A DNA stretch of 63,547 bases, counting the filler, from Klebsormidium nitens (lineage: Eukaryota; Plantae; Klebsormidiophyceae), in the NCBI GenBank assembly GCA_000708835.1. It is 7 parts of 7 records of this genome, joined end to end, with 100 filler letters (N's around TTAATTAATTAA, not from the genome) between each part and the next. Parts side by side here need not be neighbours in the genome. Positions count along the whole stretch, not along the records: positions 59,031 to 61,613 come from DF238090.1; 6 more parts are not named here. The stretch is one strand, 5' to 3'. The notes under the pieces are model-generated. The model saw nothing but the letters and a program-made list of their open reading frames with translations. It was not told the origin of the DNA and did not search any database. The position numbers and the translations under genes were made by a program. Below, piece by piece: positions 27,098 to 63,547 of this stretch (position 1 is the stretch's first letter; the number at the start of each line of letters is the position of its first letter).

Positions 27098-27099
27098 AA

Positions 27100-28620
27100 A
27101 ACACCCCCGCCTATCCGGCTTACTACATTCTGGGCAATGTGACCGAACTCTCCGCAATTACAGCACTTAGGCCTTTTGCCTCGGCTCTCATCCTTGCCGT
27201 GGCCCTTCTTCTTGCTCACTTTCCGCTCGGCCACATAGGCTATAGCGGAGTCCGACCCACCGCCGCCCTTATCCTTAGGCGACTCCTCAAACCCCTGCTC
27301 ATGCATCAAAAGCTTTGGCAGAATCGCATCCACCGAGCTAATGGCGCTCTCTGAGGCCTCTAGGATCGTTCACAGGGTACTAAACGTCTTGGGCAATCCC
27401 GCAAGCACGCTCCATGCCAACTCATCCGGCGCATCTCAAAACTGGTGGCGCCAAGTCCCTATACAAATCCTTTGCCCGACCCACATACATGGCCACGGGC
27501 TCACCCGACTTCATCTTGAGAGAATGTGTTGAGATCGGGCTAAATCTGTGTACGTTGTGGTACTCGTCATCGCGTTATCATAGTGTTCGGCACTCATGCG
27601 CATCACATCGATGATAGCAGCCATGCATCATGAGAGGAGCACACGAAGCGCCTCACAGTCGGCAACCTTCTTCACCACAAACTTCTCTTCGAATCCTCAC
27701 TATTGTCTCACGAGTCTCTTTTTCCACTAGGCTCACTAGCTTACTAGGCTCACTAGCCTAAGTCACACACTACTAGGCTCGCTAGCTCAAGTGACTCTCA
27801 GCCTTCGATATCCTCATCTACGGCTCACGTTGACGGTCCTCTCAACCGCCTAACCTTCAAGGTATAACCGCCTAACCGCCTTGCACGCGTGCCGGCGCTC
27901 ACTAGTCCAACCCTAATTCGGGCCGAACCCTCATCACAGTTACTCGGCCGGCTATAATCACCGAATTCTAGCTGAATGCAACTCTTGCCTAGGTTGCATC
28001 TTCCTTGCATTGGTTTTGCTCTTGTAGGTCTTTCCAAGGAAATCCCACGCCTCCTTGGCGGTTCTGCACTCCTCAATCGACCCCAAATGGTGGTCTCCAA
28101 CCGTTAGCACGATGATGAACAACGCTTTTTTTCATTGAGCTGGGTGCGCTATGGGATCTTTAAGTTCATCCCATAGATTCTTGGAAATTAGCGAAACTTA
28201 ATCTTCGAAATCCACGTCTCGTTTTCCACATGATCCAACTTATCGATGTGGATCTTGTATCCGTCGGCCATTTCAAGGATTGCGTTCCCTTTCTCTCTTT
28301 CTCAAAACGAAATGTGGAGTTTTCTATTGAAAATTCCCTGCCACTAGATTCCCCTGACGGGCTTTCAAATGTCGTTTAGCTCAAAGAGCATCCACGATAA
28401 AGCAGACCGCCCGCCCCGATGCCTTCATTGACAAAAGAGAACCAGTGGCCGACCTTGGCGCACAGATTCAATGGTCACCCTCGTGGAGGCCTACTATTGA
28501 ATGCTTGCGCCTTCACTCCCTAGGCGCCGTGGTGCGCCGTCCGTGCGCCGTGGGCCCATAAGCTGTTGAAACACGGCGTTGTTGGGAATATATGATCGAA
28601 TGATCAAGTTCACACAATAC
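27100..28620 (-). mobile_element. Degenerate Ty1/copia element A1: 5' LTR end, half-tRNA-iMet PBS and gag remnant, interrupted by a solo LTR
   Basis: On the minus strand the LTR end ...GTGTTTCAACA (28564) abuts PBS GCTTATGGGCCCA (28563-28551). Gag remnants include TAKEAWDFLGKTYKSKTNARKMQPRQELHS | LKMKSGEPVAMYV...LAWSVLAGLP...VDAILPKLLMHEQ and the zinc knuckle CCNCGEFGHIA. Confidence 0.75.
27527..27973. mobile_element. Solo LTR (family B, copy 2) with 5-bp TSD inserted in copia gag
   Basis: It starts TGTTGAGA at 27527 and ends GAATTCTAGCT at 27973. GAATG flanks both sides (27522-27526 and 27974-27978). Removing it rejoins the gag frame RQELHS-LKMK. Confidence 0.8.
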
Positions 28621-33578: not shown

Positions 33579-34076
33579 TGTTGAAACGCATGGTGGAGGA
33601 TCGTAGTGTAGTCGAGTTACACGCCATCGGGTCTTGTCGTGTTGCCCGGCACTTATGCTCATCTCTCATTGATGGCAGCCATGCATCCTAAGAAGACCGC
33701 ACGAAGCGCCTCACAAGCGGCTTCCTTCTCCACAAACTTCTCTTGATATGAAATATCACATTAGTAGTTCTACCACCATAAGTCTTACAGGTCTCTCCCG
33801 TCTCACTAGGCTCATTAGCCTACTAGGCTTACCAGCCTAAGTCACACACTACTAGGCTCACTAGCCTAGTTCACAGCCACACTCAATCTTAGCCTTCGAT
33901 ATCCTCATTTACGGCTTACACGGACGGCCGCTCTCAACAACCTGACCTCCAAACCGCCTAACGGTTTGATCGTCCAACCGCCATACGCAAACATCGGGCC
34001 TCACTAGTTCAGCCCTAATTCGGGCCGAACCCTAATCACATAGTAATTCGGCTGACCACAATTAGCGAATTCAACA
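33579..34076. mobile_element. LTR family B, copy 3 (apparently full length, no TSD seen)
   Basis: Runs TGTTGAAA ... GAATTCAACA and shares both the gcagccatgcatc...gaagcgcctcaca block and the ctagcctaagtcacacac block with copy 2. Confidence 0.75.
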
Positions 34077-34221
34077 CTCCCACTCAGACGAATAACTTCA
34101 AGACTCTAACTCGTCACGCTCCTCTTGTGGGCTGTCTTCTTCGCCTTGGGCGTCACCCACCCTCTTCCCTGGTTGAATCCCTCGATGACCCCGTCCCGAC
34201 GTCAGCCTTCGACTCCACTTT

Positions 34222-34302
34222 TTGTTAAATATCATGGGCCGTACCACTGGGCTATCCTTGCGCAAGTGGTAGCCCAGTGGTACGGCCCATGATATTTAAC
34301 AA
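34222..34302. repeat. Near-perfect 81-bp palindrome (33-bp perfect arms)
   Basis: TTGTTAAATATCATGGGCCGTACCACTGGGCTA (34222-34254) is the exact reverse complement of 34270-34302. The centre CTTGCGCAAG is itself palindromic. Confidence 0.95.
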
Positions 34303-34316
34303 GGCTCTTGTCCTGG

Positions 34317-35645
34317 TTAGGTGTTGGGAGCTAGCCAATTCAACGAGCCGCTTGCCCGCATTACCCTTTCAATCACTTCAAAAGCCACTCTTTTGGAAGG
34401 TTTCCCTCCTCTCTGTTGCTCTGCCTTGAGCTCCCTCTTGTCCAATTTGCTACAGATCCGGGCAATGTGATCCAACTTTCGGCAATTGTAACACTTAGGC
34501 CCCTTGCCCCGGCTCTCATCCTTGCCGGGGCCTTTCTTCTTGTTCCCTTTCCAGAGAGGTAAATAAGCCATAGCGGAGTCCGACCCACCACCGTCCTCAT
34601 TCTTGGGTAAAACCTCTGCTCATGGATGAAAAGCTTTAGCAGAATCTCATCCACCGAGCTCAAGGTTCCCTCCGAAACTCTAAAGATTGTTCTTAAGGTA
34701 TAGAACGAGCTCGGCAATCCCGCAAGCACGCTCCAAGCTAGCTCCTCCGGCTTCAGCTCGAAATTGATGCCTGTCAATGTTTGCCCAAGCGACGAACTGT
34801 ACGTACATGGGCAAAGGCTCGCCCAACTTCATCTTAAGGGAATGCAAATCCTGCTCTTCAGGAGCTACACCTTTCTTGCATTGTTTTGTCTCTTTTAGGC
34901 CGTCAAGGAGATTCTAAACCTCCTTTGCGGTCTTGCACGCCTCAATGGTCCTCAGATGATGGTCCTCACGTTCAACCCGATTTCGTTGATTAAGATGCGT
35001 GACCTCGGGATCCATTACTCCGTTCCATGGATCCTTGGACGTTGATAAAATCCTTGATCCTTCAACTTCAATCAATGTAGTTGTCTACAACAAGCTTGTC
35101 TATGTGGACTTTGAACCTCTTTAGCCATTTGAGGGTTTGCCTTCCGTTTTCCTCTTTCTTAGACCTAAAGCTTTATGTCACGCTTTCCCTGCCACTAGAT
35201 GTCCCTCACAGGGCTTTTGAATGTCGCTTGCCTCGAAGAGCATCCGTGATAAAGTAGATGCCAATGCCCTCGTTGACAAGGCTGATTTGATTGTACCGCG
35301 TTGTACCGCGTTGTGTCGCGTTTCCTCATAAACATGCCTTCCTTTCTGCGGATTTCACGCGTTGCCTGCTCAATGGCCGTAGTACAGTGGAAAAAACGGC
35401 TTCTTTACAACGTCGTCGCAACAGGGAGAGCACCCTTGGCTGACCCTCCTCCCTAGCGCTATGGGCCCATAACCTGCCAAAAACACAGCGTTGTTGTTTG
35501 GAAGTGAAATTGAATCTACTACACAATGTAAATGGAGTGGGGCCTCCACACCGAGGAATTTCCACGAGGGAATTCAAAACTTCTTAACTCTCAAATCCAA
35601 AGTCCCAAATCCAAATTCCCTTTCGACTCAAAGGGGGTTCCTTGA
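34317..35645 (-). mobile_element. Degenerate Ty1/copia element A2 (same family as A1): LTR end, PBS and gag
   Basis: LTR end ...TTGGCA at 35475 is followed by PBS GGTTATGGGCCCA (35474-35462). Gag pieces are ELAWSVLAGLPSSFYTLRTIF...VDEILLKLFIHEQ and the knuckle CYNCRKLDHIARIC. The 5' leader is similar to that of A1. Confidence 0.8.
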
Positions 35646-35932
35646 TGTTAGAATCCGGTGATTATGGTCAGCCGGATTACTCCGTGATTAGGGTTCGGAC
35701 CGAGTTAGGGTTTGAACTAGTGAGCGCCGGCGTGCGTGCACAACGGTTAGGCGGTTAACCTTGGAGGTTAGGCGGTTGAGAGGGCCGCCGATATGGAGCC
35801 GTAGATGAGGATATCGATGGCTATGATTGAGTGTGAGTGTGATCTAGGCTAGTGAGCCTAGTAGTGTGTGACTTAGGCTGTGAGCCTAGTAGGCTAGTGA
35901 GCCAAGTGGAACGGAAGAGACCCGTAGACTTA
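35646..35932. repeat. LTR family B, copy 4 (inverted relative to copies 1-3, truncated by gap)
   Basis: Begins TGTTAGAATCCGGTGATTA and is the reverse complement of the shared block of the other copies. Confidence 0.8.
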
Positions 35933-43281: not shown

Positions 43282-44564
43282 GCTGATTCCGATGTCAGAA
43301 GGAAGCTTTATGCTATAGCTAGCTGTATGCTGGACAGGGGCTGCAGATCTAGATCGTTGCAACCTGCGCTGTCCTCAGTACGGCAGTTTCAGCGGTCCTC
43401 CGGCTGGATTTTTGGATACCACAGCTGACAACAAGTAATTGCAGGCTATCTGCTCAAGGCATTGATAATATGCAATAGTTTGCCTGGGAGTGGCGCGTCC
43501 CTGGCAGTCAGTCTGTCATGACGCTGTTCTGAGCATGCGCAAACTATGAAAGTATCTGCAACATTCAAAGTGTATGACGCGCAGTTGCTAGGAATTAGAA
43601 TTCAGATCTCGGCACAAAGCCCTCTGCCGGCCGCCGTGATGTTAAAATTCAAAAAGCTGTCAAATTACCAGTCTTGCGAGGGCTAAAAAGCCGGAGGAAA
43701 AGGGTGCATACTGGCGCTGTAAACGATATAGCGCCTCTGAGATATACGTTTTGCAAGTCAGGATGTTGCTATGAATGAAATGCTTGAGCAAAATTCCTAA
43801 AACGGACACCTGAGGCTGTAAGTTAGAGCAACTCAGCAACTTTAGTCTTCTACCTACCTAGATCGTAGTGTACGGTAATAAGTTATCGACTCTGCATGAG
43901 CTCTACGCGCTGCGCTTCAACCTCAAGTTTGAAGGGGAGTGCACATCTTCCCCGGTTTTTCGAAAAGCACGTGAATGCAGCCGTTCAGATCGCAAGTGGA
44001 TCCGATCGGACGGCTTTGGACGAGCCAAGTACGTCTCTTCTCATCGACGATTCAAACTCGGTCAATGCTTTCAATCGGCGGTCGATACCCGTCGCGAACC
44101 GTTCCCTTTTCTGCCGCGCGGCCGGGCAAGATCACATTCAGCTGGACAGNNNNNNNNNNNNNNNNNNNNNNNNNNNNNNNNNNNNNNNNNNNNTTAATTA
44201 ATTAANNNNNNNNNNNNNNNNNNNNNNNNNNNNNNNNNNNNNNNNNNNNCGGAGGTGGAGGGCTTGAGCATGAAGGCGGAGAACCGGACACGAGAACTAC
44301 TGTCCGCCCTGTCTCTCCTGTCGTCCTGCTAAGGACGGGTCGGAGAGTCCCAGCCCCTGTTCTGTCTAGGAGTCATCCGTCATTTGAGGACCATCTTCAG
44401 GCGCAAGCAATATCGGTGTCTGCGAGGTTACTGTTGCACACCAGTCATCTTGGTTGGGAACAGGTCGGGAGTTTAGCACTCTCCTCTTCTCTTCGCATTT
44501 CGCCTTCCCAATGCTGCCTGGCTTGTTTCAGAAGGAGTAGACGATTAAAGGAAGAGACGATCAA

Positions 44565-47500
44565 ATGGATCCCATTGAGGAAGTCAAGTCGGAAATAGCA
44601 GAGGTCAAGGAACAAATCAAGGCTGTTTCAGAAGAGATTAAGGAAGCGAAGGAGGGCATCGAGCGTGCAGAAGAAGCTGGCAACCTGAGTGAGAAACAGC
44701 GCTGGGTGAAGAAAGAGGAGCAGCTGCGGGAGGAGAAGAACAAGCTGCTGGAGGAGAAGAACAAGCTGCTGGATGAGAAGGCCCGGCTGCAATCTGCAGG
44801 TGCGTCTCTCTTCTTGTCAAAGTATGTTGATTATCTTGGGCACAGGCCTTGAAACACTGTGCAAACCCGCAGGCAGGTGAGTGCACCTGCTCAGAGCACC
44901 TTCGTCAGGGTTTGTTTCCATCAGTGTGGGTTAGAAATGAGCGGCTCTCGTCGCCAGCACCCTTGTGTGTGCCGCTCGCTGTAATTGTGGGAGTTGAAGT
45001 TAGCACAAGAATGCATGTAAAACGGAGCGGCGTGTTCTTTACGGTCATGATGACATGCATGCTAAAGCTGTCTTTCGAATGTGGATAAAATGTTTCAGGT
45101 TGTCGAAAGGTTGCTGATCGACATGAGGGTTCTAGAACAACCGCAGGCTGTCCATCTTTGCAAGCTTTATTGTATGCTCTTCTGCGAAAGAACTGGGAAT
45201 GGCGCAGCTTTGCTGGTCGCATCAAAGGCAGCACAAGACGGTTGCTAAAATGTCAGAAGAATTGCATGTTTCGGAAGAGTGCACGTTGGAGCAGGTTTTT
45301 GCAGCTTAGTCAGCTTGGAAACTTTTCCAGCATGAGCAACTGTGAACTGGCAGAGACGTGCTTACAGATTTCTCTCAGCATGTGCTTTGCTTGCATGGCT
45401 CGGTTTTCCTGCGGGCAAGTGTTCAGCTGTTGTGGCCGGACATCCTGCTTGGAGGCAGAGTTGTTGGTATGCTCTTTTCGTCTCGAGGGTCAAGCATGTG
45501 ATAAGTGAGCATGTAAAGGAGTCTGCAAGTTGGCCTGTTGTGTAGGGATTCCAGTCTAGTCGTTAATGGTTGAGCATGTGGAAGAAAGAGTCTGCTGTTT
45601 GGCTGGTTGCTAAGGAACTCTCGTTCTTATCATTGCAGTGTCAACTACTGGCGGCAACAAGGGCAGCAACATGGAGGTCTGCGCACGACTTCTTGGCGAA
45701 GTTAACCATTGGGAAGCAGAAGGAGCGCTTGAAGCCACAGCTGCAGACTTTGGAGAAAAGCTCCTAGCACCTTTCAACCCTCTCCCGGCCTCAGTTCAAA
45801 TATACGACCAGATCAATGATGAAGATGAAAACTTGGGCCGAAAACTCAAGCTGGAAGGTGACTGCTCCCTTGTTCGGCGCGTCTCGGGTTTGCTGGATGA
45901 TCCTGAACCAACTGCAGGCAAGTTCTTGCTCTCCTGACCTGACTTTGTGTTGCCAATGTGGTTGTTGACGACTGCACTGCCAGCATGGCAGAAATTGTTA
46001 GATGACTGTGTTTACTACCTCCTGACCTTTACGGGTCCTACAAAGATGCTAGGTATGTCGATGAAGCCGCATGAGTCTTCCAAGCATCCTATCGTCACTC
46101 GCTGAGTGTTTGCTGAGTTGGTGCCTTGCTGCAGAGCTGAAGGAGTTGGCAACGTCATTTAATGTGATGAAGTTCCTGAGCCTCCTCCAGCGTCTCGCGA
46201 AGTACGCCCCGGATCGTCTGAGAATCCATATACGGCTCTCTTGGAACCAGGCAGAGCGACGTGTGTCTCGCCCTGTCACGCAGGTACTGTTTGATCATCC
46301 TATCATCCTATCACCTGCTTGAGGACATCAAAACTGTTTCTTCACCTTTCTGGCAGGGCTGTTCATAGGTTGCTTTGTCTACCAGGTTCAATAATGAGTA
46401 CACCCCGTTTCATCATTTGATAAGTTGCTTTGAAGGTGTACTGAACTGGTCTGTCTAATTTTGTAACCTTCATCAGGAACGAGTGGTCAGGGTTGGCTGA
46501 CAAGTGGCTTTTGCATGCAGCCCGGGACCATCGTTCGGCCAGACACACACCTTGTGACAGAAAAGCTGTCCCTCCTGTTTGGGGAGGACAAGGAGGCGAA
46601 CGACGAGCTCACAGAAGCCTGGAAGGACCACCGAAGGAAGCTGAACGGGGGCTTGAATCCTGTCGCCTATGGCAGAGTGCCATTCATCCCTCTCTACGCT
46701 GCTGCAGGCGATTTGATCCAATTCGGAAGGCTGACCTCAGACGGGCAAGTAGGTTGTCAGTCTCAAGCTGTCAGGCCTCTCCTTTCAACCCACGCCAGCT
46801 GGACATTCCATTTCCTGCACGGGGTTGAATAAGAACCTTATGGAGCATCAGGGGACTGCTCAAAGTTTTCGCTTCGTGCTGCCCATGTTGTCTGGATAGT
46901 CTGGAATTGTAAGTCATGTTCATCTCAGCAGAACAAAGTGAATAGCTCTTCTTTGTCTTCGGAGTGGCTCTCTTTCTGCGTCCATTAACAGAGAGGCCTT
47001 CTTCTCTTCAACACTTCACGCAGGAAGAACTGTCAGTCTTCATCCATAGATCTGCAACAGACAATCCCAAAGCCTGTTGTTCATGGTGTGTTATCAATTG
47101 CAGGTTCAGCGCGCTGGCCGGGCGTATGACTGGACCGTCCAAGGAGATCGGATTGCAATCGTGATTGCGGTGGTCAACATCTATAAGTTGCTTGTGACAC
47201 TGGTCAAGCTCGCCCCAGAAGACCACCAGAGGTTTCCAGTGTTTGACATCATCTCCCGGCCAAACGGCGCGGAGATTCTCATTTGCCTTGCAACGGTGCA
47301 CAAGAAGATTGAGAACAGCGCCGACTTCTTTCAGAGCATTCACAACGACTACGAAACTGTAAAGGTGGGGTGTTCAGCTCGTGGCCACTCTGCTCTCCCT
47401 GCTGATCACGGCAATTTCCAAGATTCTGATTATCCGTGGAGTTCCTTGACACCAATACAAGCTGGGTCGCAACATAAATGTGTAAGAGGTTCCTGACGTT

Positions 47501-49254
47501 TGCAAACCTGCGAGTCCCAAAGAGAAACAAAAGTTGTCATGGTGAACGGTCAGTGAGATACGACATTCTTCCAGTGTACACCTTCGAGGATGTTTCAGGA
47601 AGTTCGAGAAGAGTTAGACTAGAAACGAACCTTTGCACCCGATGCTTGAAGTAAGGAGTATGTGCAGTATTACAATGCCGGCCTCACGTTTTAACATTCT
47701 GAAGGCAGGCAATATGAAGTTTCATGGCTCCTTTCGAACTTCCAACTTTCCGAGATGCCTAAAGGCGGCAAGCGCAGAAGGTGCAAACGACGCCAGAAAG
47801 CTGCTGATGTCCTCTGTAGAGTTGAAGACGTTGTGTTGCCAACAAAGAAAGCGAATGAGCATCTGGATCTTTGTCAGTCTTTTGAGGTCTGGGGGCTAGA
47901 TTTCCTCAATTGACCTGCCCTCTACGCATGCAAAGTCAGGAAGACCGCACTGCTGGGGCCCTGTCCTCTCGAATCTTTCAAGCATGCTAAAGGCCCACGG
48001 TTAAATCCGCGCGCGAGCGGTACCATATGCTGCTGACACAAGCCGACCAAAATCATGTCAGTACCTTGGAAACGTTCTCGTCGTTCATTGAGATGTTATA
48101 CCTCAGCAAGATGCATGTCCCAAGTCGAGGAGTTCGTTGAAGAGAGTAGAGCTCGTATTTTTGAGCAGAAAAGGAAGAGTACTGACCAGGGCCTTCTTTG
48201 CATCATTACAGACCGCGTACGAGCTGGCCAACGGAAAATCATTCGCGGTCTGGCACGAGAGCATCTCCAATACCCCGGGAAAGAAGCGTGGTAGTACCGA
48301 TCAGCCACGCTGCATCTACAAGGTAAGTCGCACCTGAGCAGCATTTTGCTTTGATCATTTCTAACCTTTGTCTAGGTTGCCCTGATTCTGTGCGTTCCAA
48401 TGTCGATCGTTCTCATTCGACCTTCCATGCAGAGTTTGCTTGGGCCAGAGTCTCATTGACTTGTTCTTCAAGCCCCTGGCATCGAGCTGCTTTACTGTCG
48501 CTACCACTCTTTCTGGAGCACTGCCTGTATCTCTGTGCAGGTCGTCTTGACCCGGTTGGGCTTCTGCATCGAGGACATCAACGAGCTGAGCGAGAGCGAC
48601 CTTAGAAAAGCTGTCCGTGTGTGCTTAGAGCTCTGCCGGCTGTTCGCAGCTGCGAAGCTCGGCCATTGCGACCTGCGAATGTCCAACATCCTCTGGGGGC
48701 CACAACCCTTCGTCGCCGACTTTGAGGCCGCGCACAAGCTGCCCTGGAAGGTAGGCTTATTTTAAACTGATCCTTGAAGTTGAAGACGTCTGGTGGATCT
48801 CTGCTTGCTTCTTGCTTGCCTTCTGCCCTTGTCCCTTTTCAACTACAAAGGTTCGGCTTTGTTGTGAGGTAACTGTACCTCCTCAGGAGCTTAGTGATAC
48901 AAAAGTTTTCTTTAAGGCCCCAGATTGGAAGCACGAAGTGCGCCACAGCTCAGAAGGATTGGATGTCATTTAAAAGCCCCCATCCTGAACTCTTTTGTTT
49001 TGAATTCTTTTGCAAACATGCTAACATTCCTGGTGGCATCGCAGGTGCCGCACAACTTCCAGCCCTTTACAGACTGGGATGCTGGAACATTGTCGCGATC
49101 AAGAGAGTACACCACCAAAAGCGACGTGTACCAGGTGGGCATCATGATGGACAAGTATGACGGATTGACAGAAGAGGGTCGGCAATTGGCCGCGTTACTG
49201 AAAAGGAAAAAGGTAGAGGCAGAGGTCGCTTTAAAGGACCCCTACTTGTCTTGA
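44565..49254 (+). CDS. Crinkler/CR-effector-like protein: coiled-coil header + PD-(D/E)xK REase-fold domain + divergent protein kinase, 8 exons, 560 aa
   Basis: Exons 44565-44799, 45639-45917 (GC donor), 46135-46283, 46521-46748, 47104-47364, 48212-48322, 48541-48750 and 49045-49254 total 1683 nt in an open frame. Features are a heptad E/K-rich N-terminus, RPD...LLFGEDK, and kinase motifs HCDLRMSNIL, VADFE and KSDVYQVG. Confidence 0.75.
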
Positions 49255-50165: not shown

Positions 50166-52005
50166 GGGCTGGGTCACCCGACGCCTACCGTCGGGGGCTT
50201 CTTGGACCACATCTTTAATGGCGACCGAGCATTGATCGACTTCATGCAGAGGCTCTGGGGTTATATGCCATCAACGGACGCACCTCGGAGGAGATCACTG
50301 TGTTCCTTCTTGGAAGCGGCGGTACCTCTTTTCCTTCTTCGGCTATAATTGTCTTCGTCGAACTGCNNNNNNNNNNNNNNNNNNNNNNNNNNNNNNNNNN
50401 NNNNNNNNNNNNNNNNNNNNNNNNNNNNNNNNNNNNNNNNNNNNNNNNNNNNNNNNNNNNNNNNNNNNNNNNNNNNNNNNNNNNNNNNNNNNNNNNNNNN
50501 NNNNNNNNNNNNNNNNNNNNNNNNNNNNNNNNNNNNNNNNNNNNNNNNNNNNNNNNNNNNNNNNNNNNNNNNNNNNNNNNNNNNNNNNNNNNNNNNNNNN
50601 NNNNNNNNNNNNNNNNNNNNNNNNNNNNNNNNNNNNNNNNNNNNNNNNNNNNNNNNNNNNNNNNNNNNNNNNNNNNNNNNNNNNNNNNNNNNNNNNNNNN
50701 NNNNNNNNNNNNNNNNNNNNNNNNNNNNNNNNNNNNNNNNNNNNNNNNNNNNNNNNNNNNNNNNNNNNNNNNNNNNNNNNNNNNNNNNNNNNNNNNNNNN
50801 NNNNNNNNNNNNNNNNNNNNNNNNNNNNNNNNNNNNNNNNNNNNNNNNNNNNNNNNNNNNNNNNNNNNNNNNNNNNNNNNNNNNNNNNNNNNACCCCCTT
50901 GATGACGTCAGCAGCCATTCCACCAATAGTCCACCGCGATTGGTGGCGTGAACGTTTCGAGTGTCCCAGTCTGTTGAGCACTTGCCTTTTGCTTTGTTGC
51001 TCTAGAATGACGTCAGCAGCCATCTCTGACTGTTTATCCGTTGGGATAAATAATCACGCCCATTTTGCTTTGATTGGTTTGTCCATCACGAATTCTCTTA
51101 GTCCATTTCGGATGCCCCGCTCACATGCTTTTCATCCCCTTTCCCGTGCAGGGAATGGCAAGGGAGTATGCAAGCAGATGCTGGAGATCACGCTGGGCGA
51201 ATACTACGGCGTGATTTCCAAGGACGCCGTGGTCAAGGCCCCCGGACAACACCCGCCGTCCAAGGGCGCTGCCACGGGCTACCTCGCCGAGCTCCAGGGA
51301 AAGCGGGTGGCCGTGACGGACGAGACGAGCCCGGGAGAGCGCGTCGACCTAGGGAACGTGCTCATGATGACCGGCGGGGGCATGGTCGCCTCCCGGCTCC
51401 TCTACCAAAACAACGTCTCCTTCCGGTTCACCCACACGCCCTTCATCCAGACCAACTATGACCCCGAAATTCCCCCGACCCTAGCCAAGCAGCCAAACAT
51501 CGCCCGCCGCCTCATCGTGGTCCACTTCCCAAACGAGTACGTGACCGAGAACAAGTTTGACGAGACCAACCCAAACCACAGGCACGTGGACATTGGGTTG
51601 AAGGGCCGGATGGAGAGTCAGGCGGTCCGCGAGGAGTTCCTCACGTTCCTCGTCCAGGGAAGTCGGGCCTGGTACGAGGACCCCACGGTCTTGCGCAGGC
51701 ATCCGGCGGCCGTCCAGGCGGCCTCAATGGCATGGCTGCGGCGCGGAGACAAGCTGCAGATCTTCCTGCAATCGGAGCACTGCGTGCACGACCCGTCGGA
51801 GACGCCCGACAATGCCAAGACGGTCACATGGGAGGACGAGTTCTGGACGCAGTTCCAGAGATTCACAGGGGTCAAGATTGCCAAGGAGGAGTTGGCTAGG
51901 CAGATGCGAGAGAAGGGTTACGCGAGAACGAAGCGAGCCGGCCGTTATGACGGGTCATCCCAGCGGAGCTCGTGCTATATAGGCTTCAAGTGCGAGTATG
52001 ATTGA
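50166..52005 (+). CDS. D5-like/P4-family SF3 helicase (viral primase-helicase C-terminal part), intron-containing, with one apparent 2-bp frameshift; 5' part not recovered
   Basis: Exon 50166-50321 reads GFLDHIFNGDRALIDFMQRLWGY-AINGRTSEEITVFLLGSG once an extra AT at 50265-50266 is removed. Splicing G|gtacc...gcag|GG to exon 51152-52005 gives Walker A GSGGNGKG. Walker B is RVAVTDE, followed by LMMTGGG...RLLYQ, FIQTNY, RRLIVVHF and a C-terminal winged-helix-like tail. Confidence 0.8.
50893..51030 (-). repeat. Inverted copy of the ~101-bp repeat inside the D5 intron (next to a gap)
   Basis: The reverse complement ggtggaatggctgctgacgtcatcaagggggt matches ggtgggatggctactgacgtaatcaagggggt at about 52757-52788. 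Confidence 0.7.
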
Positions 52006-52615: not shown

Positions 52616-52861
52616 CACTCGAACACCTTCGTGCCGTTGATTATAGAGCATTGCTGGTGGGATGGTTGCTGATGTCATCAAGCACGCTCAACAAAAAAGG
52701 CACGTAAAAACTTGGACGATCGGACACCTTCGTGCGGTTGATTATAGAGCATTACTGGTGGGATGGCTACTGACGTAATCAAGGGGGTCGACCTCAAAAC
52801 TTTCGTCAAAAACTCGGGCACTCGAACACCTTCGTGCCGTTCATTATAGAGCATTACTGGT
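52616..52861 (+). repeat. Tandem repeat of a ~101-102-bp unit, at least 2.5 copies, running into a gap
   Basis: caccttcgtgc(c/g)gtt(g/c)attatagagcatt(g/a)ctggt recurs at about 52624, 52725 and 52827. Confidence 0.85.
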
Positions 52862-53640
52862 NNNNNNNNNNNNNNNNNNNNNNNNNNNNNNNNNNNNNNN
52901 NNNNNTTAATTAATTAANNNNNNNNNNNNNNNNNNNNNNNNNNNNNNNNNNNNNNNNNNNNTGATAATACACTCAGTAGATTCGTCCATCATTCTAGAGC
53001 GTGATTACGATGAGTGAGATAAGATTTTGCTATTTCACGTAGCTTATTACATAGGCATCATGCTTTTTCGCTTCGACTGCATATGTTGAGCGCACCCGAC
53101 ACGGCACAGCCTCGACTCATCACGGCACGACAGCTCTATATGCCGGCGGCCGGCCGCGCCGATCCGAGCGCGGCCACAATTTCAAATGTACATATTGCTG
53201 GCGCGCGCGATCAGTCATGCTCGACGGTCTCATGGCGAGTCGTTGCATCGTAGCCTGATCGGCAAGGTGGCCCGCGGAACTGTAAGGAATCAAGTTCATG
53301 TAACTGAGGCCTTGGAAGATCAGAGAACCTTGCGTTCTCCTATCTAGGTCAACCAACGTGAGTCTCTATCGTTGGACAGCGGTTCCTACGATTGCAAGCA
53401 CGGTTTAGAATTCCCCTTGCTGCATGTGCATAGACGGCCAGGAACTTGAACATACATGCGACCCGATATTAATTGATGCAGCAAGGGCAGGCCACCTTTA
53501 GCGCTTTAAAGGGCGAATCAGTGTGGGGCGCCTAGATTTATCAAGTTCTTGTCGACACTGGAAAGCGGCAACCGCATGTTACTACCACTTTCCGCAAAGA
53601 GCTAGCCATTTCATACCAACTAATGAGCATCTCTTGGGTC

Positions 53641-56600
53641 CTAGCTGACTGCGACGCGCCCGCTGACTACGGCCGTGAGAAGCCGGTGCAAGTTGGGCAG
53701 CGTTTGACGGGGACCCACCGCCGGCAGCTGCAGTGCGCTCAGCAGCTGTTCAATGTCCTGCACACCACCACCGCATCTTGGTCACCTCACCACAAACTAG
53801 AGTTGGGACGACCTGCTTTGTGAGGGCAAGAGAGTGGGGATTCCATTGGAAGCTTACTCTAGAAGCGAGTAACCGCCTCCCCAGGATCGTTATTCTAAAG
53901 CTGTACAAACACTATCCGACAGCAAAATGGCCCTCTGCATGCTGATCTGCACCGAACCGCCTACCAGCCGCACACGGGGCAAAGCACCAGAATTTCGTCA
54001 ATCGAAGCTTTAGTACTTGTTGCTAGCCCCCTCTGATCCAAAGGTCACAACCAACCATAGACGTCCAACCAATCTTGGTGGCCGAGACAATGACTTCAGC
54101 ACACACTGAATCAAACATGCCTGGAAGCAGAAAGCTGAAATACACCCAACTCGAAACCAACCAGCCGGAGACAAGGAGGTAAGCTGTCCAGCCGCGTCCT
54201 CACCTTGTTCAGCAGAAACACCGCATACGAGAACTTGGTCTCATCCGCGCCCTCCGCAAACAGCGGAAACTCCACCGCACGCTCCCCGGGGGGCGGTCCC
54301 GGCCCGGAACCCCGGCTCGGCCCCCCGTTCTTCACCCCCCCGCCAACCGCCCCCCGTTTCGTCTGAATCCCCGCGGCGTCGAGCACGTACGATCGCGACG
54401 CGCCGAATCGCAACGGGTACCGCAGCGCAACGCCCAAGATGCGCGCGAGCATTTCGAGCAGGTGCGCCACCCCCCCTAGCGCGGCCGCGACCCGCTCGTA
54501 CGCCTGTTTGTCGGACAACACCTGCCCGGGGGGGCCTTTGGAGAGCAGCCCCAGGCTGGCCAGCGCGGCGGCCCCCGCATCCCCGACCCCCCCGGAAAAG
54601 CGCGGCGAGCCGCACAGGAGCGCCTCGGCGGCGCAGGGGTCCAGACACAGGCACGGGCCGAGGGGCCCGATGGGAGGGGGCGCGGGCGGGGAGCGCCCGC
54701 CGGGGCGTGCCGAGTTGTCCATGTTAAGCAGGTTGCTCCCCGCAATGAACGCCTCGAGAACGTCGGAGGGAGGGGGCGAGCCGGGCCGAGAGCCGGTTCG
54801 CACGGAGGGGNNNNNNNNNNNNNNNNNNNNGGGGGTGTCTGGAAGGGGGGGCGACAGGGAGGGGGGGGGGCGTGCAAGGTCGATCTGAGAGACAGTGCGC
54901 GAGTGGAGGGGGGTGGGGCTGGGAGACGCGGCTGCGCTGGGGGGCGGTTTCGTTCTGGGGGGCACGAATGGGGTGACGGCGCAGGGGAGAAGGGCGGGGT
55001 AGAGAGTGAGAAGGCGCCCGAGCAGACGGCGCCGGCGGGCCGCCAGGCGGTGCTGTAGTTGTGCCACGTGGCCGTGGCCGGTGCCGCTGGCGAGGAGGGC
55101 CGCCGCAGCCTGCATTGCACACGTGTCGTTTTACCAGGCGGCGTCACAAATGTAGAGCTAGGCAGGTGCTGTTGCAAGTCGATGTGGAATGTCTTTCAAT
55201 TGAAACCGCAGACTGGTCCTTGAAAGGGCACAAGAAAAATCTAGAGACGTGCTGACAACCGCCGAAGCCAGATGTCAATGTTAAAACAGGCCAGCTTCTT
55301 GCACGCGAAAAGCTACTGGAAGAAGTTTTGATTTGGCCATTGCCGCAGAAAGCCTGCCGCCCAAATCTTTACTTCATCTTCCGTAGTCGTCAAAGGCCCT
55401 TGATGACGGCGGACTGAACGAAGGAAGCCCGTAAGGAAAGCCCTACCAGCCCAAGAAAGACCCCACACGAGCCTAACAATCCCCCAAAGGTGGCCTACGC
55501 TTGATGCAGCTTTCAACAAAGCTGGCTGCCTTATTCGAGTCCAATTTGAGCCAGCGCGCAATGTTTGAACCTTTCAACAAGTGGCATCCGGGTCCTCGAA
55601 TGCTTTCGGCTCTGCGCATGAGGGGAGTATCTGCGATCGGCTCGGTTCTCGTTATATCCTGATTACCAAGGTCCTCACAGGACTGCATGGACCTTCTCTA
55701 TCGTTCTCGCAACGCGTACTTCGAAAAGGAAACTCAAGAGAAAGTTTACAGAAGCGGGATATCGGACTTGTATCAACCGGCCAGCTTTTACTGAATGTGC
55801 AATATCCTCAAGTCACAGATGAAAGCCGCTGCTCACATCTAGTCGTTTTCGCGCGCCCGCCAGCGTGGTTGCCGCCCCGAGCAGCCCCGGCGCGCGCTCA
55901 AGCACCTCGGCTTTGCGCTCCTCGATGCGTGCGCGCGCAGCTGCGAGCGCATTTTTCTCCCGCTCTAGTTCCTCCCGCAGAGCTGCCACTCGGCGATGAG
56001 CCTTCTGGGCCGCCGCAGCTCTCTCGAAGAGCGCTTGCCGTTCCTGCCAAATTTGAGCGATTGATTTCATTCACCAATTGTTGAGACCAGATGAGGGGAT
56101 TTCTGTTTCTTACCATTATGCTGCGTATGCAGAGTCTTCAAGCCAAAAAAGCAAATGGGAGATTCGACAATGCTTGTGTTGCATCATTTCGGGTCGACTC
56201 AGGGCTCACTGTCATTTTTGCAAGTATCCACTTTCAGTAGCTGACAAGCGCCTCGAAAAGGTCATGTGGCGATATATGATTGTACAACGTCTTAGAGCGC
56301 TGCCACCCGAACCTCATCGACCATACGTGTTCAGATCCAAAACATTCTCTGATACATACTTAGTTCGCAATGACACTCTTGATCTTTCAATCCAAACCGT
56401 GAAAGTCAAAAGTCGCAGAACTCCACAATCATGGGACATTGCTAGCAAACACGAGAGACGACCCGCTTTTCTGGATCCAGAAGTCTCCCTTGCCCCGTCA
56501 GATGTCAAAGAAGCAGCGCAACTTTCTGTGTCCGAATGTTGATTCGTCTGAAGCGGTCATTGCTAGCCGATATGGTATGTTGAACTTTCACGTTTACGTT

Positions 56601-57800
56601 TCGCATCTTGTTTGACACTTGGATCACTGACCCCCTCACCTCTCCTCTGCATCGAACCGCCTCCTTCATCGCATCCCGTCTCGCCCTCGCCCGCCCCAGC
56701 CGCGCCGTCGCCCCCCCAGCCGCATACACCCCCTCCTGTAACTCCTCCAATGTCACTTGCACTCCCACCTTCTTTTCCCCCCTTCCGTGCCCGCCCCCCC
56801 CTTCATGATCATCCGTTGACCCGTTTAACTCGTGCGCTGCGGCTAAGGGGCTGTCCGGTAACACATACCACCCATCGGGGGCCTGAAACAGCAGGGCGTT
56901 AACCCCCCCATCTGCATTAAGCTCCCAGGGAGGATACTGCAGCCGCACCAAATGTCGTAGATCCACGTCCATCCGCACAACTTCTTCTTCCACGATCTCC
57001 ACTACCCCTCCCATCTCATTGTCTTCTTCCCCATCATTGTCTCTATCCTTCTGAAATCTTGAGCTTTCGCCCCCTTTCGCTGATATCGCGCTAACTTCTT
57101 CCCCCTCCCTCCTCCGCACCTTCCAGTTCCGTCCTCCCGGGAGTGTCCCCCATCGTCGCTGCCCCGTTGCCGGCAGCCCCTCCAAAACGGACCTCCCCTC
57201 TCCTAGTTTGCTTTCATTGCCTCCCCCCCCCACTTCCTGCACTGCAGCACCCCCCCGGCCCCAATCTTGCTCCTCTTCCGCGCCCCCATTTTGTCCCCGT
57301 TCGGTGGCCGCCACGAACACGGACACTCGCAACGGACCGCAGTGCGCCAAAGCGTGCGATGACATCAGCGCCAGGTCGATGACGCCCCATTCTGGCGCGA
57401 GGGTGCCCCATGCGAGCTCACTGCTGTAGAAGATTTCACCCCCCTCCGACGAGCGGCTTGTCTCCGATTCCTTCTTAAGGGGACCGGGGTCATAGGAAAT
57501 AGACTTTATGAGCAGTTTTGGGGGTGGGCCGCTGTGCGACTGTGGCTGGGAGCTTTCGGAGCCGTAAGTAGTGGCGGGGACAGCAAGGGTGAAGTAGGCG
57601 GCGAGGTCGTGGGTGCAGGGGGAGAGGGACTGGGGGAACAGGTTGCGCGCTTGAATGCCCAGCAGGCGGCGAAGGCTCAAGGAACCTTCGCTGTCACCCT
57701 GCTCCCTCTCTAGTTTGGCCCCGTGGGGATCCTCGCTGTCTGTCAGATCCCTCCCATTTGGCGTTTGCGCCAGATGGTTCTGTTCGATTCTAGCCATCAT
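53641..57800 (-). CDS. UVRAG: UVRAG/VPS38 (PI3K complex II subunit) with an N-terminal C2-like domain, 4 exons
   Basis: Exons 57800-56640, 56043-55837, 55109-54204 (contains a 20-nt N gap) and 53757-53641. The C2-like segment is LRRLLGIQARNL...YFTL...EIFYSSELAWGTLAPEW, followed by a coiled coil. The BARA-like segment is AALGGVAHLLEMLARILGVALRYPLRFGASRSYV...EFPLF...KFSYAVFLLNKDIEQLL. Confidence 0.88.
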
Positions 57801-59128
57801 AAATTCTTAAAAGCCCTTTTAGTCAATCTTTTTCGATTGATAAAGGCGGTCAGCTGCCGCAGACATTGACGCGTCTTGATGCCTGAGTTGTACATCTCGT
57901 CCAGATGTGATAGGCCAGGCCTCCGCAAGCTCTCTGCTCTTGGTTTCAAGGGGCGCCAGCCACTGCAGCAGAGGCCTTACGAAAGTCAAATTGATTGAAG
58001 GTCAACAAAATCAAAACGAATCTGCCTGTTACTTCTGGCATTGAACAATGGTCTTGTGACTTCTTCAGCGTCAACCTGAAGCTTGAGGACCCCTTGAGGA
58101 CCAGGATTCAATCCGATAACTCAATCCCTACATGATGGAACTCTAAGCAGGAATTGTGATGACCATGAGAATTCGCTTTTGATAGCAAAAGCAAGTTAGT
58201 ATCGCAACAAGGTTAAGAATTTGTCAATCGCGGATGAATGCATGAAAATCTGGGCGACCATCTTAAGAACGGGAGTAGGAATGATAACAAGACGCAACAT
58301 GGAGGAGCATTGTGGAGCTTGCAAGTCTTGTTGATGTTTACCACCGTTAAAGAATCCAAATCCGTCCAGGATTTGGTGCCGTCGTATGAAAAGCTCCATG
58401 TCCTCGAACAAGTTAGATGCCAAAGAGATCACTTTCATACAAGTCAAAAGGGAAATTCGTTCGTAGAGATTACCTAGAAGATGATCAAGTACTAACATAA
58501 GGCTAGGAGGCTTCCAAAATGCCCTTTCCTGGCTAAGACGCCCCTGCTACTCCAACAGATAATGTGCAAGACGCGGCACAGAAGTTAAACACAGACGGAC
58601 ACTCCTATTCGAGCTGGAGAACTTCAAAATTCCAGATGTTATTCCTCCGCCCGAAGATCTTGCCTCTCCCTTTGCGCCTTCTCTTGTCTCTCCCACATTT
58701 TGTCCAGTCAGAACGGAGGGAAGGAGAACGTGGATTGCAGTTTGCAGTCCGAGACCCCCACACCGCTTGATACTCAGTGCGCGAGCACCGGGTCTGGGAA
58801 CGTCACCGCCGGCGAGGTTTGACATGCCGGATCGCTGGCGACCAACATTGGGGTCTTTCAAAGGTCCGGAAATGCACACTCCGTGCATGAGTCTTTTTTT
58901 AAGGGACCAGATTGCAAGTTCGACCAATCTNNNNNNNNNNNNNNNNNNNNNNNNNNNNNNNNNNNNNNNNNNNNTTAATTAATTAANNNNNNNNNNNNNN
59001 NNNNNNNNNNNNNNNNNNNNNNNNNNNNNNTCTTGCGCCAGTTTGCACGATTGACGCTTATGCAATTTTGATTATGTGCTCCGCCAGGTTTCCTGCAATC
59101 TTTGACTCATTTCGCTTCCATTTTGCAG

Positions 59129-61613
59129 TGGGACTGCACGCCTGCTGCACCTCGAAACGGGGCAGATCACTGGCTGGACGGAGGACTACGTCAAGGCGGA
59201 CGGCATGCTGCCCTATCCCGTTTTCCCCATCGACTCCCCCGCCAAGCACACAATCCTCACTTCAGCCAACAAGGGCATTGGAAAGTCGAAGGAGGGGTTC
59301 GACTGGCTCGAGAGGCTGCTGGAAATCTATCCCCACGCCTCCGTCGCCGTCATCGCAGCCAACGTCACGCTCTCTCGGAAATATGACGAAGATCTGAAGC
59401 GGCGCGGCATTGAGGTCACGCTGTACCTAGATTTGCCTGGAAAGATCACGGCAAGCAGGGTGGTGTGCTGCGTCAACTCCCTCCCACGGCTCGACGCCAG
59501 CTTTGACGTAGTCATCATGGACGAGATGGACATGATCATGTCCAACATGAACTCGGATGTGATGGCTCGGAAGAAGATGGTTTTCTTGGCAGTGGAGGGG
59601 GCGACAAAGCACGCCAAGATTGTGCTCGGGATGGACGCCAACATCGGCAGCCCTCGGGTCATGCAGTGGCTGTACATGGTCCGGACGGATGCTGCCTTGC
59701 ACGCAATTCGTAACCGCGGGGTGTACCCAGGTGAAAGGAAGGCCACGATCAAGTACATCCCGTCGACCAAGCGTTTCCAGGCAGATCCCTACGGCCCCGC
59801 CATTGCTGAGACGATGGAGGCTTTGGACCGAGGCAAAAAGGTCATAGTGAGTCCCTTCGTGCAACTTTCAAGAGAGAAGAAAAGCTTTGACTTCCCAACG
59901 CAGGCTGCAAAAAACGAACGCCCTCCCCGGCTCTTTCCAACCAGAAAGAAAGCAGACTGAAAAAACGAAATCGGAAACGAAAAACGGAACACAGCCACGG
60001 ATCCCCCACCGACCAATCACAGACGGCCACGTCAGCAGACAGAAAAAATCCGCAAGCTTCTCAGATCGAAAGGATCCGCCCGTCGAGTGCGCGTCACTTC
60101 AACATATTTTGACCAGGATTGATCCGTGCTCTCTTTACTTCAACCTGCTCCGGAACATTGCATGAAATTCAGGATTTTCTCGCAACTCTAGTTTAGTACA
60201 GCACGGCAGCACTGCCGCACAAGCAGCAGCGCAACGATCATGTTTTTCCGAACGCAACGAGTCGCGGCCTAGATCAAAGGAGCACACTGCACACGAATAT
60301 CGGAACGTTTCTGACACCTTGCAGGCGCCCTCCGCCAGCAAGACGTACGATCTGAAGCTCAAGGAAGCCTTCGAGCAGCGCTACCCGAGCGACAGCCCGA
60401 CTGCCAAGTCTGGAAAGTTCCTCTACTCCAAGCCAGAGTCGGAGGCCGCGAAAGAGGCTCTTGTGTTGGCAGTTACCGATCCGGATACTCATCTGACGGC
60501 GGACCTGTGCGCCTCTTCGCCTGTGATCGGCCCTGGTATCTCGAGGGAGCGGCCCCACTTTGACAAGCTCATCGCTTTTGCCATGAACGCCTTCGAGCGG
60601 GGGCCCACTGTCGAGACGTTTCTCCAGCAGCTCTTCCGCGATCGTACTGTCAGTGACTTCACGATCTACGTGAAGGGTGGTGCGGGCCCACGGTCGCTCC
60701 CTTCGACTGTGGAAGACGTCTTCTGCGCGATTGAGGACGAGGACCGCGAGCTGGCCAAGCTGCTTGGAAGCACCGAGCATCTAGACTTCATGCTGGCACC
60801 CTCGGGGACGCGGCCAATCTGCGACAGAAACTCCCCGAGCTGCATCCTCTACGCAAACAACATTCTCACGATCGCCAACAGTTTCCGGGACTATCCCGAG
60901 CTCCTGCGCGCTGACCTGATCAAGCAAGGGTTCGTCGTCGAGGAGGTGTATCTGGACGACGAAGCACCCTCCATTGCGGTGCGCAAAGCGACTAACGGAG
61001 ACAAGAACCTCGCTGATGAGGATTGGCGGGCAAAGTACGTCGTTGATGAAGAGGCGTACCGCAAATTGCTCCGGAAGGCAGAGGTTGATTCCCTGAACGA
61101 GATGGAGGAGAGGCAGAGACACATTTACGAGTGCATCCGCAACGTGCACAAGGTCGATCCTCGTAGAGTCGACCACAATTACGAGGTGGTGCATTGCGGG
61201 AAGGAGCTAGTCCCGTTCAAGAACTACATCAGGTAAGTGTAAAGCACTGTACGATAGATTCCCAAGTGATTTCGACTGGATCGAACTGCCTTCAGAGCTT
61301 CAAAGCTCCAGCCAACTTTGCCTTGTTTCTGACCAGAGCTGTCGAATTGACTGCAAGATTGTCTTATTGCCTTTGCGCAGATTGTACATGCTTCCTTCAC
61401 TGCCTTGCTCCTTCCGGTTCTTGCCGCAGGCTTGCCTTGCCTCTTCCCAATCCCTCAGTCCTGCAACGTTTGCGGCCTAGATTCAAAGAATTGAGTATAT
61501 CGGAACAGCATGCTAGGTGACTCATACAAACGCTCTTTTCGGACAGGTTCCGAACGACCCCTATCTCCTCCCTCATGGACGAGCTCACGAGAGCTTTGAA
61601 GGAAGGAGACACT
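59129..61613 (+). CDS. Origin-binding-protein-like SF2 helicase (herpes UL9 / NCLDV ori-binding type), intron-containing, both ends lost near gaps
   Basis: Exons 59129-59846, 60325-61232 and 61547-61613(gap) splice in phase. Motifs: Walker A SANKGIGKS, Ia AANVTLS, VVCCVNSLPRL, Walker B VIMDEMD, III GMDAN, SSPVIGPGIS and QQLFRDR. Confidence 0.75.
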
Positions 61614-61713
61614 NNNNNNNNNNNNNNNNNNNNNNNNNNNNNNNNNNNNNNNNNNNNTTAATTAATTAANNNNNNNNNNNNNNNNNNNNNNNNNNNNNNN
61701 NNNNNNNNNNNNN

Positions 61714-62345
61714 GGGGACAGAGTGAGGTTCTGATCACCCTCGGGATGCTGGCGGATATGCAGAGTCCCACCAACCCAACTCCTATCCCACCGACACCCA
61801 CACCAACTCCGACTCCTACTCCCATCGCACCAACCGTTGCAGTCTCACTGCAGACTACACCTAATGTGTGGAAGTTGACCGTGACACCCACACCAGTCTC
61901 AGCTGTGGTCAACGGTGACAACACGATCACGGTGACTCTGGCGACACCTAACACTCCCACTCCAGTGGTGACTCCGACACCAGTTGTGACTCCCACACCA
62001 ACACCTATCGTTACTCCAACTCCGACTCCTGTCGTGACACCCACGCCACCACCTACAAGCGGTGGCATCTCGGTGACGTCCCAGGTGACAAGCTCCTGGT
62101 CGGAGGGAGGCGTTACGAAATACAACTCGCAGATCTTTATGAAGAATAACACCGCAAACACGGTGCACAGCATCGTGTTGAACAAGCCAAGCACTACATT
62201 GAAACCTTGGAGTATTACGGAGACTGAAACTACCCTATCGCTTCCCTCATGGATCGTGCAGTCGGGTCTTCCTGCGGGACAGACGTACGACTTTGGTGGG
62301 ACATTCACCAGTATCCCTACATTCACGGTTCTGAGCTTTGCATGA
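61714..62345 (+). CDS. C-terminal part of a Pro/Thr-linker protein ending in a CBM49/CBM2-like carbohydrate-binding module; intronless, 5' end probably in the gap
   Basis: (PT)n and (VVTPTP)n linkers are followed by VTSQVTSSW...Y...I..KNN...PWSI...LSLPSW...LPAGQTYDFGG, which matches the CBM49/CBM2 pattern. Confidence 0.65.
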
Positions 62346-62382
62346 GCAAAAAATTTAAATTGTTCTACAACAAAATAACAAG

Positions 62383-62832
62383 ATGTTACAGGTCAACGAC
62401 TTGAAACAATTGGAGACTGGCCATTATGTACTATATTTCGTGCGTGGACGTGCTCCGAATAACTATGTTTGCTATGATATACCCTTTATCAACGAGACTT
62501 TAGCGAATGAATGCTGTGAGATTTATCAGGAACATCGAACAGAATATTATGGGACTGGATACACTTTCTGTAGAGTTTATAAAACGATATGCATATTTGA
62601 TGGAGAGTATATGCATTCACTTACACATTCTGGAACAAAGTGGTCTTTGACACAGATCGATAAATACAACGACAAGGTTATGCAATGTTCGGATAAATAC
62701 AAGACATACATAGGATTCTTTGGAGATGGATTGCGAAGGCATCGTACTTTCCTCGAGAAGTTAGCAATGACACTGACATTTGGTTTCTGTTGTGCCGTAG
62801 ATGACTGTGTGAGTGTGCGGATCGATGGGTAG
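62383..62832 (+). CDS. Hypothetical 149-aa intronless AT-rich ORF, virus-like gene organisation
   Basis: ATG-initiated ORF only 37 nt after the previous stop. The spacer is A-rich (aaaaaatttaaattg...aacaaaataacaagATG) and codon usage is A/T-ending, unlike the host exons. No recognised domain. Confidence 0.55.
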   Translation: MLQVNDLKQLETGHYVLYFVRGRAPNNYVCYDIPFINETLANECCEIYQEHRTEYYGTGYTFCRVYKTICIFDGEYMHSLTHSGTKWSLTQIDKYNDKVMQCSDKYKTYIGFFGDGLRRHRTFLEKLAMTLTFGFCCAVDDCVSVRIDG

Positions 62833-63472
62833 AAACTTTTGATTTCTTCAATCAATCAGAATAGTGTGCCCGGTTCGCCCAGCAATCGACGGATCAGGTC
62901 AGGTTTACGTAGCAGGATCGACGGTGTTCGTCCCAGGAATAGCTTTAGCACTGTTGAGTAGGAAAGGTATTAGACAGACAAGGAAGGCGGCTGCATATAA
63001 CCCTACGCACATGAATTCCATGCAAGCTCTAGCATGAACCGGTGATACGGTTTGCGATGGAAGGCTTGCGACATGATTGCAGAAGAATGCACAATCGAAT
63101 ATACCGCTTGCGCGCGTGCACGCCACGTATGAAATGTTCCATGAGAATATTCCATGCTTGGTTATATGCAGAAGGGGTCCGTAAAAGGGAATTGGCTGTC
63201 CTACACAAATCGACAATGATACAATGCAGCAAGACCTCTCCAACGAGCATTTTTTGAAAGTAGGTCCAACTCCAAGTACCAAACGTACAACCAATGTCTG
63301 CTTCATCACTCTGCCTCGTTCAACACACTCTTTTTGAGCCTCTAGATAGATAGACAATGAACGTTCACCTCGTTCTGCCAAGCTTGCATATTCTACCCAC
63401 TTCTACAACATAGACTGAGCATCGTCCACACCAGTCGACTTCAGTACCACTATCAATGTTTTGCGGAACACT

Positions 63473-63540
63473 CTACCGCGTCGTGTTGGACACCCTGATA
63501 GTGGTACAGATCCTACCGCGTCGTGTTGGACACCCTGATA
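63473..63540. repeat. Two identical 28-bp direct repeats (period 40)
   Basis: CTACCGCGTCGTGTTGGACACCCTGATA occurs at 63473 and 63513. The array may continue beyond the window. Confidence 0.85.
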
Positions 63541-63547
63541 GGAATGG

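Follow-up and report, generated by a model that had tools for sequence, protein, structure and literature searches.

A spliced, multi-copy PrimPol–UL9 helicase gene family in the alga Klebsormidium nitens and its possible origin in a virus-derived selfish DNA element

Introduction

Self-copying DNA elements known from eukaryotes rely on a protein-primed polymerase (Polintons) or an HUH nuclease (Helitrons, Replitrons), or have kept a capsid. The closest described relatives of the gene discussed here are viral: F1055L of ASFV is presented, in the available text of PMC10653895, as a UL9-like protein fused to a primase, and fusions of a primase with a UL9-like helicase also occur on plasmids and phages (PMC5862659, in extract). 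Virophages, as well as Polinton-like viruses (PLVs), are, in turn, small integrating DNA elements that replicate with a primase-helicase (PMC11296320, in extract). A further feature of our discussion, the 2A motif, is known in viruses and in non-LTR retrotransposons (available text of PMC3708506), with GxExNPGP being a recognised non-canonical core (excerpts of the preprint PMC13405545); a survey of such motifs includes two from Klebsormidium, both putative and in a different protein (PMC12338488, excerpted).

The DNA analysed here – 63,547 nucleotides of the K. nitens genome, joined from seven parts and referred to as the window – contains at 59129–61613 a locus for which a preliminary description, made from the sequence, had claimed an intron-containing, viral-type origin-binding helicase in host codon style. 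We find that the locus is the spliced middle of a PrimPol–zinc finger–UL9 helicase gene belonging to a multi-copy Klebsormidium family, and that its protein falls within a viral family already described.

Structure of the locus

The locus occupies the forward strand of a 2583-base contig (59031–61613) between two assembly gaps, with both gene ends absent from the window. Its three exons (59129–59846, 60325–61232 and 61547–61613), all without stop codons and with the first whole codon at 59130, are separated by a phase-0 intron of 478 nt (59847–60324, GTGAGT...TTGCAG), which has an in-frame stop at 59958–59960, and a phase-2 intron of 314 nt (61233–61546, GTAAGT...GGACAG); both are of the GT–AG type and preserve the frame. 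Exon 1 encodes a zinc finger tail and the first RecA lobe of a UL9-type SF2 helicase, with motifs I (GIGKS, 59274), Ia (59355), II (MDEMD, 59517) and III (MDAN, 59631) and the start of motif IV. The second RecA lobe and a helical C-terminal region follow in exon 2, with motifs V (SPVIGPGIS, 60517) and VI (QQLFRDR, 60625).

Upstream, 59031–59128 (+) is the 3′ end of another intron, its acceptor TTTTGCAG lying directly 5′ of 59129. Contigs from eight public runs have zero depth over 59031–59117, and in all eight exon contigs run from the locus into another exon instead, an upstream exon missing from the window being held by contig loose ends at 59124. The gap at 58931–59030 (an N run with a linker) has taken the gene's 5′ portion, comprising zinc finger and PrimPol domain and probably also the leader and 2A-like motif discussed below, and neither tblastn nor a leader-HMM search found this part, the leader and 2A included, elsewhere in the window. 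Exon 3 continues into the gap at 61614–61713, which holds the 3′ end of the gene (~150 C-terminal residues) and any element end; the public contigs extend ~418 nt beyond 61613.

A motif block (GCGGCCTAGAT..CAAAG..TATCGGAAC) at 60253–60306 (+) in the first intron has a partner at ~61462–61506 in the second; each of its motifs occurs one time in either intron and nowhere else in the window. The introns thus appear, with modest support, to share this block; the reading of both as introner insertions is nonetheless weak, because the alignment score was also attained by 7 of 708 control windows.

Identity and domain architecture

In a profile search, exon 1 matches PF02399 (Herpes_ori_bp) with 43.4 bits (cut-off 20) and an E-value of 1.7e-11, and the locus has SF2 motifs I, Ia, II, III, V and VI; by both profile score and motif set, the protein belongs to PF02399. 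A PDB search by sequence returned UL9 only below threshold (E 0.16–0.24). An ordinary eukaryotic SF2 helicase, which the preliminary description had regarded as fatal to its reading, is ruled out by the top profile and fold matches, which are to UL9.

The full-length architecture is visible in sister copies. The K. nitens gene models P0009 and P0180, 77–82% identical to the exons (78–79% for exon 1, with exon 2 being 77–83% identical to P0003, P0007, P0008, P0009 and P0180), have an additional N-terminal primase and zinc finger, giving the order PrimPol primase, zinc finger, UL9 helicase. A structure model of P0009, built from an 87-row alignment (pLDDT 87.6), has HSV-1 UL9 as its top PDB match (9hgi, E 5.8e-19), also matches human PrimPol (TM up to 0.72 on target) and finds its best viral fold matches in giant-virus origin-binding proteins. 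The upstream AEP primase that the preliminary description had suggested looking for, and the viral family to which it had assigned the helicase, are thus both borne out.

The sister copies carry the DxD, SxH and D motifs of PrimPol and a C-H-C-C zinc finger, of which the window locus shows only the zinc finger tail. In the alignment of 87 relatives, the AEP residues (D88 in 73 of 81, H159 in 79 of 84, D212 in 81 of 84) and zinc finger residues (C350 in 81 of 83, H357 in 81 of 86) are nearly invariant. Sequence-specific binding and unwinding of an origin is a putative activity of the algal protein.

Family size, phylogeny and an old intron

Copy number was taken from protein records rather than from a genome scan. 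The representative search matched 188 proteins with an E-value of 0.001 or lower, the best 150 of which were used. At least 13 K. nitens gene models on 12 scaffolds align with P0180, in addition to the window locus – a paralogue count that the preliminary description had called for – and two of them (KFL_001380210 and 001380250) share a scaffold. Every AEP and helicase motif is retained in five of the 13, the other eight being partial or minus a domain. The family is accordingly dispersed as well as multi-copy (13 models, 12 scaffolds), and contigs more than 99% alike carry different sets of variants, which may be strain differences.

All eight Klebsormidium rows of a 35-row full-length tree form one clade (quick-search support 100), placed among giant-virus and virophage proteins, with the virophage proteins branching far from it; in a 52-row helicase tree, one clade of 16 rows (support 96, likewise) comprises five subfamilies. 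Sister to the Klebsormidium clade in both trees is P0024, an uninterrupted protein of 1090 aa. As the trees are unrooted, the viral origin of the family rests on distribution rather than on a root. A profile of the distant relatives found 14 viral loci, all of them distant, on 234-kb and 548-kb contigs, in GVMAGs and in virophages; no locus of a close relative was found in the viral contigs, metagenome contigs or prokaryote genomes searched. One of the virophage contigs (L005, 3373–12239) has a PriCT-2 plus PF02399 primase-helicase adjoining Sputnik-type capsid genes, and L006, L008, L009 and L010 have ORFs of similar size in the same order. The wider family also has eukaryotic copies elsewhere, since 61% of an Atlas cluster of similar proteins is eukaryotic, chiefly from Mucoromycota.

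The position of intron 59847 is common to all five subfamilies. Fifteen of 18 exon-sized metagenomic ORFs read into 'VS' exactly at its donor, and of the other three, one does so by eye and two span other exons. Because all five subfamilies are represented among the ORFs that have it, the intron is older than the split between them.

Splicing in public contigs

That the eight public runs, whose contigs were aligned to the locus, are RNA is a guess, made because of their GT..AG skips and the zero cover of 59031–59117 with continuation into an exon outside the window. The joint 61232/61547 (GT..AG) occurs in contigs of all eight runs. The joint 59846/60325 (GT..AG) was found in contigs of two, with the first intron (59847–60324) kept in contigs of all eight; these are the two junctions that the preliminary description had proposed to check. 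Contigs of more divergent paralogues splice the exons flanking the first intron in at least two of four runs, and a protein from a Klebsormidium subtile transcript is colinear across both junctions. Taken together with the stop-free exons, contigs and K. subtile protein uphold the claim of canonical, frame-keeping introns.

The best-matching contigs differ from the window at ~7–11 sites per 1.6 kb, the set of variants changing from run to run, and for that reason are perhaps not from the window locus itself; they probably derive from near-identical sister copies, though strain differences may also contribute, and public contigs may mix copies or strains. Contigs of spliced paralogues reach a depth of up to ~1070 (depth being a poor measure of expression); transcription of this strength would be unusual for a silenced transposon, which counts against the selfish-element reading developed below.

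Selection and codon usage

Between paralogues ~85% alike, 18 of the 21 differences in exon 2 are silent (among 40 of 382 rows), a bias between subfamilies that points to purifying selection. Near-identical contigs present another picture: seven of nine coding differences change an amino acid, one of them replacing the invariant arginine of motif VI in two of four runs – small numbers, which could also represent strain alleles or contig errors. Silent-biased old copies alongside young copies with amino-acid changes are a pattern of transposon families.

The GC3 of the locus (0.78 and 0.75) lies within the range of other window ORFs (0.55–0.81), as the preliminary claim of host codon style implied. 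The observation is not diagnostic, as GC3 also stands at 0.77 and 0.81 in two of the seven viral homologues; codon adaptation is accordingly ruled out as a sign of domestication.

A leader with a 2A-like motif

Three relatives, P0167 and P0168 (whose primase region is 71–74% identical to that of P0180) and P0170 (2047 aa, of another subfamily), have a conserved leader ahead of the primase. It holds a coiled coil – and, in P0170, a small Cys/His finger – and in all three, thus in two subfamilies, the motif LL.IG[GC]V[ED]SNPGP, with a core that fits the non-canonical GxExNPGP form, precedes the AEP domain. Leader, 2A, AEP and helicase stand in one frame only in P0170, a predicted gene model, whereas P0009 and P0180, the nearest full-length models, are without leader or 2A as modelled. 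The class A 2A/StopGo pattern of a hydrophobic or Leu stretch followed by (D/G)xExNPG-P was found in 11 of 195 proteins, all of them relatives of the window gene, and nine of the 11 have both the E and NPGP; the motif is a putative ribosome-skip site.

A search with the leader returned 14 proteins. In addition to the family described here, it heads a different PrimPol (P0194) and ORFs that are similar, in their C-terminal part, to Crinkler/RHS NTPase-REase proteins. Of these, the transcript ORF P0188 has an Atlas score of 0.99 and a weak TIGR01631 match, and P0186 and P0189 are Crinkler/RHS-like by eye only. The leader-sharing proteins are PrimPol or CRN/RHS-like, none being capsid-like in the scans. 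CR genes have been linked to transposons (PMC5289972, in the text available).

Surroundings of the locus

The neighbouring genes are of host type (pumilio, histidine kinase, HAD hydrolase and a CBM49 exon). The last exon of the CBM49 gene, with a Pro/Thr-rich linker, lies at 61716–62345 (+; E 5e-10), its 5′ part lost in the gap adjoining the helicase; on the other side, 54100–58560 (−) is what we take to be a probable VPS38/UVRAG-like autophagy gene, with weak ATG14 matches (E 0.04 and 0.24). Among the window ORFs scanned there is no capsid gene or other viral core gene, and the scanned neighbours are not NCLDV core genes; the exception to their host type is a D5/P4-type helicase fragment 7 kb away. 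The readable window showed no double jelly-roll capsid, packaging ATPase or terminal inverted repeats, the flanks of the locus being gaps; a repeat search of 52962–63547 found no terminal repeat pair around the locus, and no element ends, target-site duplications, integrase or empty-site polymorphism were seen, the gaps on both sides of the contig hiding such features.

The fragment (50219–52005, +) is the interrupted C-terminus of a D5/P4-family primase-helicase (TIGR01613, E 5.9e-18, below cut-off; 24% to phage primases), with a 526-N gap inside and an apparent intron before ~51150, and could be part of a parallel element family. Directly upstream lies a multi-exon gene (44541–49254, +), which begins in a coiled coil, passes through a restriction-nuclease-like segment and closes with a kinase (Pkinase E 0.14), and which by eye we take to resemble CRN8-type Crinkler genes. 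Tandem units of ~100 nt at 52616–52861, at a contig end, have a 36-nt inverted match (89%) at 50893–50928, the start of the D5-helicase contig, and are a possible element end.

Elsewhere in the window, a family of direct and inverted repeats of 250–450 nt, 67–86% alike, occupies 26841–28406 and 33606–35932 and has the look of nested elements with terminal inverted repeats; an 81-nt palindrome lies at 34222–34302. An exact 29-nt direct repeat with a spacing of 40 nt is found at the window end (63473–63541).

A selfish DNA element and its rivals

To the observed gene structure, splicing, sister-copy domain order, copy number and intact catalytic motifs in five of 13 models, we add a proposal, to which we give an even chance of being right: that the gene supplies the replicase for a selfish DNA element which is derived from a virus, bears introns, has no capsid and lives in the nucleus. 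Host RNA polymerase II would make one long spliced mRNA, and during translation the 2A-like motif would free the replicase from its zinc-finger/coiled-coil leader. The UL9-like part could then bind and unwind the element's own origin, with the PrimPol part priming synthesis and host polymerases probably completing the copy. A further enzyme would insert new copies, the best candidates being the leader-sharing Crinkler/RHS-type NTPase-REase genes. Retention of the stop-containing first intron may limit full-length replicase; active lineages would be kept by purifying selection, while inserted copies decay. Against the proposal count the failure to see element ends, target-site duplications, an integrase or empty-site polymorphism at the gap-bounded locus, and the confinement of leader and 2A to relatives, with a single predicted model (P0170) uniting all the parts. 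Of the two readings offered by the preliminary description, the self-replicating element fits better and domestication of a single gene is unlikely as stated, because there are at least 13 models in five subfamilies (eight of them partial), because the differences between near-identical copies mostly affect amino acids and because the leader is shared with Crinkler/RHS-like genes.

The copies could instead be remnants of endogenous giant viruses, virophages or PLVs: following an ancient insertion the gene would have acquired introns, and its multiplication, whether through re-infection, through segmental duplication or through capture by another transposon, would have been passive and not of its own driving. 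We consider this rather unlikely, although every outside relative of known context is on a viral contig (234-kb, 548-kb, GVMAG or virophage), one scaffold carries two of the copies (KFL_001380210 and 001380250), the window has a further helicase of viral type (D5/P4) 7 kb upstream and K. nitens carries several distinct NCLDV inserts (PMC5294986, available text). The inserts described there are dominated by viral genes, whereas the neighbours here are host-type; passive decay would, moreover, erase the shared intron, motifs and silent bias that persist across subfamilies ~40–50% identical, and the viral contig collection yielded no close relative. Far less probable still is an active or inducible intron-bearing virus, in which the gene would serve to replicate an integrated virophage- or PLV-like virus with its capsid genes inside the gaps. 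Gap lengths are not fixed by the assembly, 2A motifs are typical of viruses and L005 has the same helicase family beside capsid genes, but leader-sharing proteins are PrimPol or CRN/RHS-like, with none capsid-like in the scans, and virophage proteins are far from the Klebsormidium clade in the tree.

The family might, on the other hand, be a domesticated and expanded host family, the primase-helicase serving the alga – in repriming, repair, organelle DNA replication or antiviral defence, for example – and young duplicates being lost by birth and death. Ancient introns, purifying selection between subfamilies and spliced transcripts in both K. nitens-like runs and K. subtile are in its favour, as is the NCLDV-like source of eukaryotic PrimPol itself (PMC6222260); we nonetheless judge it improbable. 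Near-identical copies differ mainly at amino-acid sites, many models are partial and the family, with 13 models, is not single-copy; the stop-containing intron is retained in eight of eight runs, the contig is gap-bounded, the 2A-like leader is common to unrelated CRN/RHS-like ORFs and no other green lineage is among the named matches.

Taken further, the selfish-element proposal would define a new class of eukaryotic DNA transposon – capsid-less and intron-bearing, copied by a giant-virus PrimPol–UL9 protein and sharing a 2A-cut zinc-finger leader, with a Crinkler/RHS-type NTPase-nuclease as integrase or cargo – a possibility that we regard as doubtful, if worth stating. If true, a spliced primase–UL9 replicon in a streptophyte alga would open a further path by which a giant virus can give rise to a transposon, link the transposon origin proposed for Crinkler/RHS genes to a concrete element and provide the plant lineage with a natural 2A system. 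Even without mobility, the family is an old, transcribed, intron-bearing set of viral replicase genes in an alga related to land plants.

Comparison with known systems

In the literature searched, we found neither a description of a spliced, multi-copy, 2A-led nuclear family – supplements and subscription papers may bear on this novelty – nor a report of a 2A leader common to primase-helicase and CR-like genes. The cyanobacterial CyRepA1/All3500-type primase-SF2 fusions come close (NF042913, E 2.9e-25, with a score of 89 below the cut-off of 200), yet are prokaryotic and have a different primase domain. In 2A-bearing non-LTR retrotransposons, a 2A-like motif likewise precedes the enzyme in one long ORF (PMC3708506, available text), whereas the algal family has no reverse transcriptase. 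Virophages and PLVs have the primase-helicase in common with it – in L005 as a PF02399 gene beside capsid genes – but are distant in the tree, and the algal locus has introns and yielded neither a capsid, ATPase or recombinase gene nor a terminal repeat. Herpesvirus UL9 (PF02399), the top PDB fold match to the algal model, shares SF2 motifs I–VI, but is without a fused primase and just 16% identical to the algal protein.

Closest of all are the AEP–UL9 fusions of NCLDVs (ASFV F1055L and the origin-binding proteins of Marseillevirus, Bodo saltans virus and Pyramimonas orientalis virus), which have the same order of PrimPol, zinc finger and SF2 helicase and a similar length, about 1000–1200 aa, and give the best fold matches over the full length (E-values as low as 8.9e-43). 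They are 13–19% identical to the algal protein in the fold alignments and are encoded by single exons in viral genomes, whereas the algal family is spliced, multi-copy and nuclear, with a leader and 2A-like motif in some of its members.
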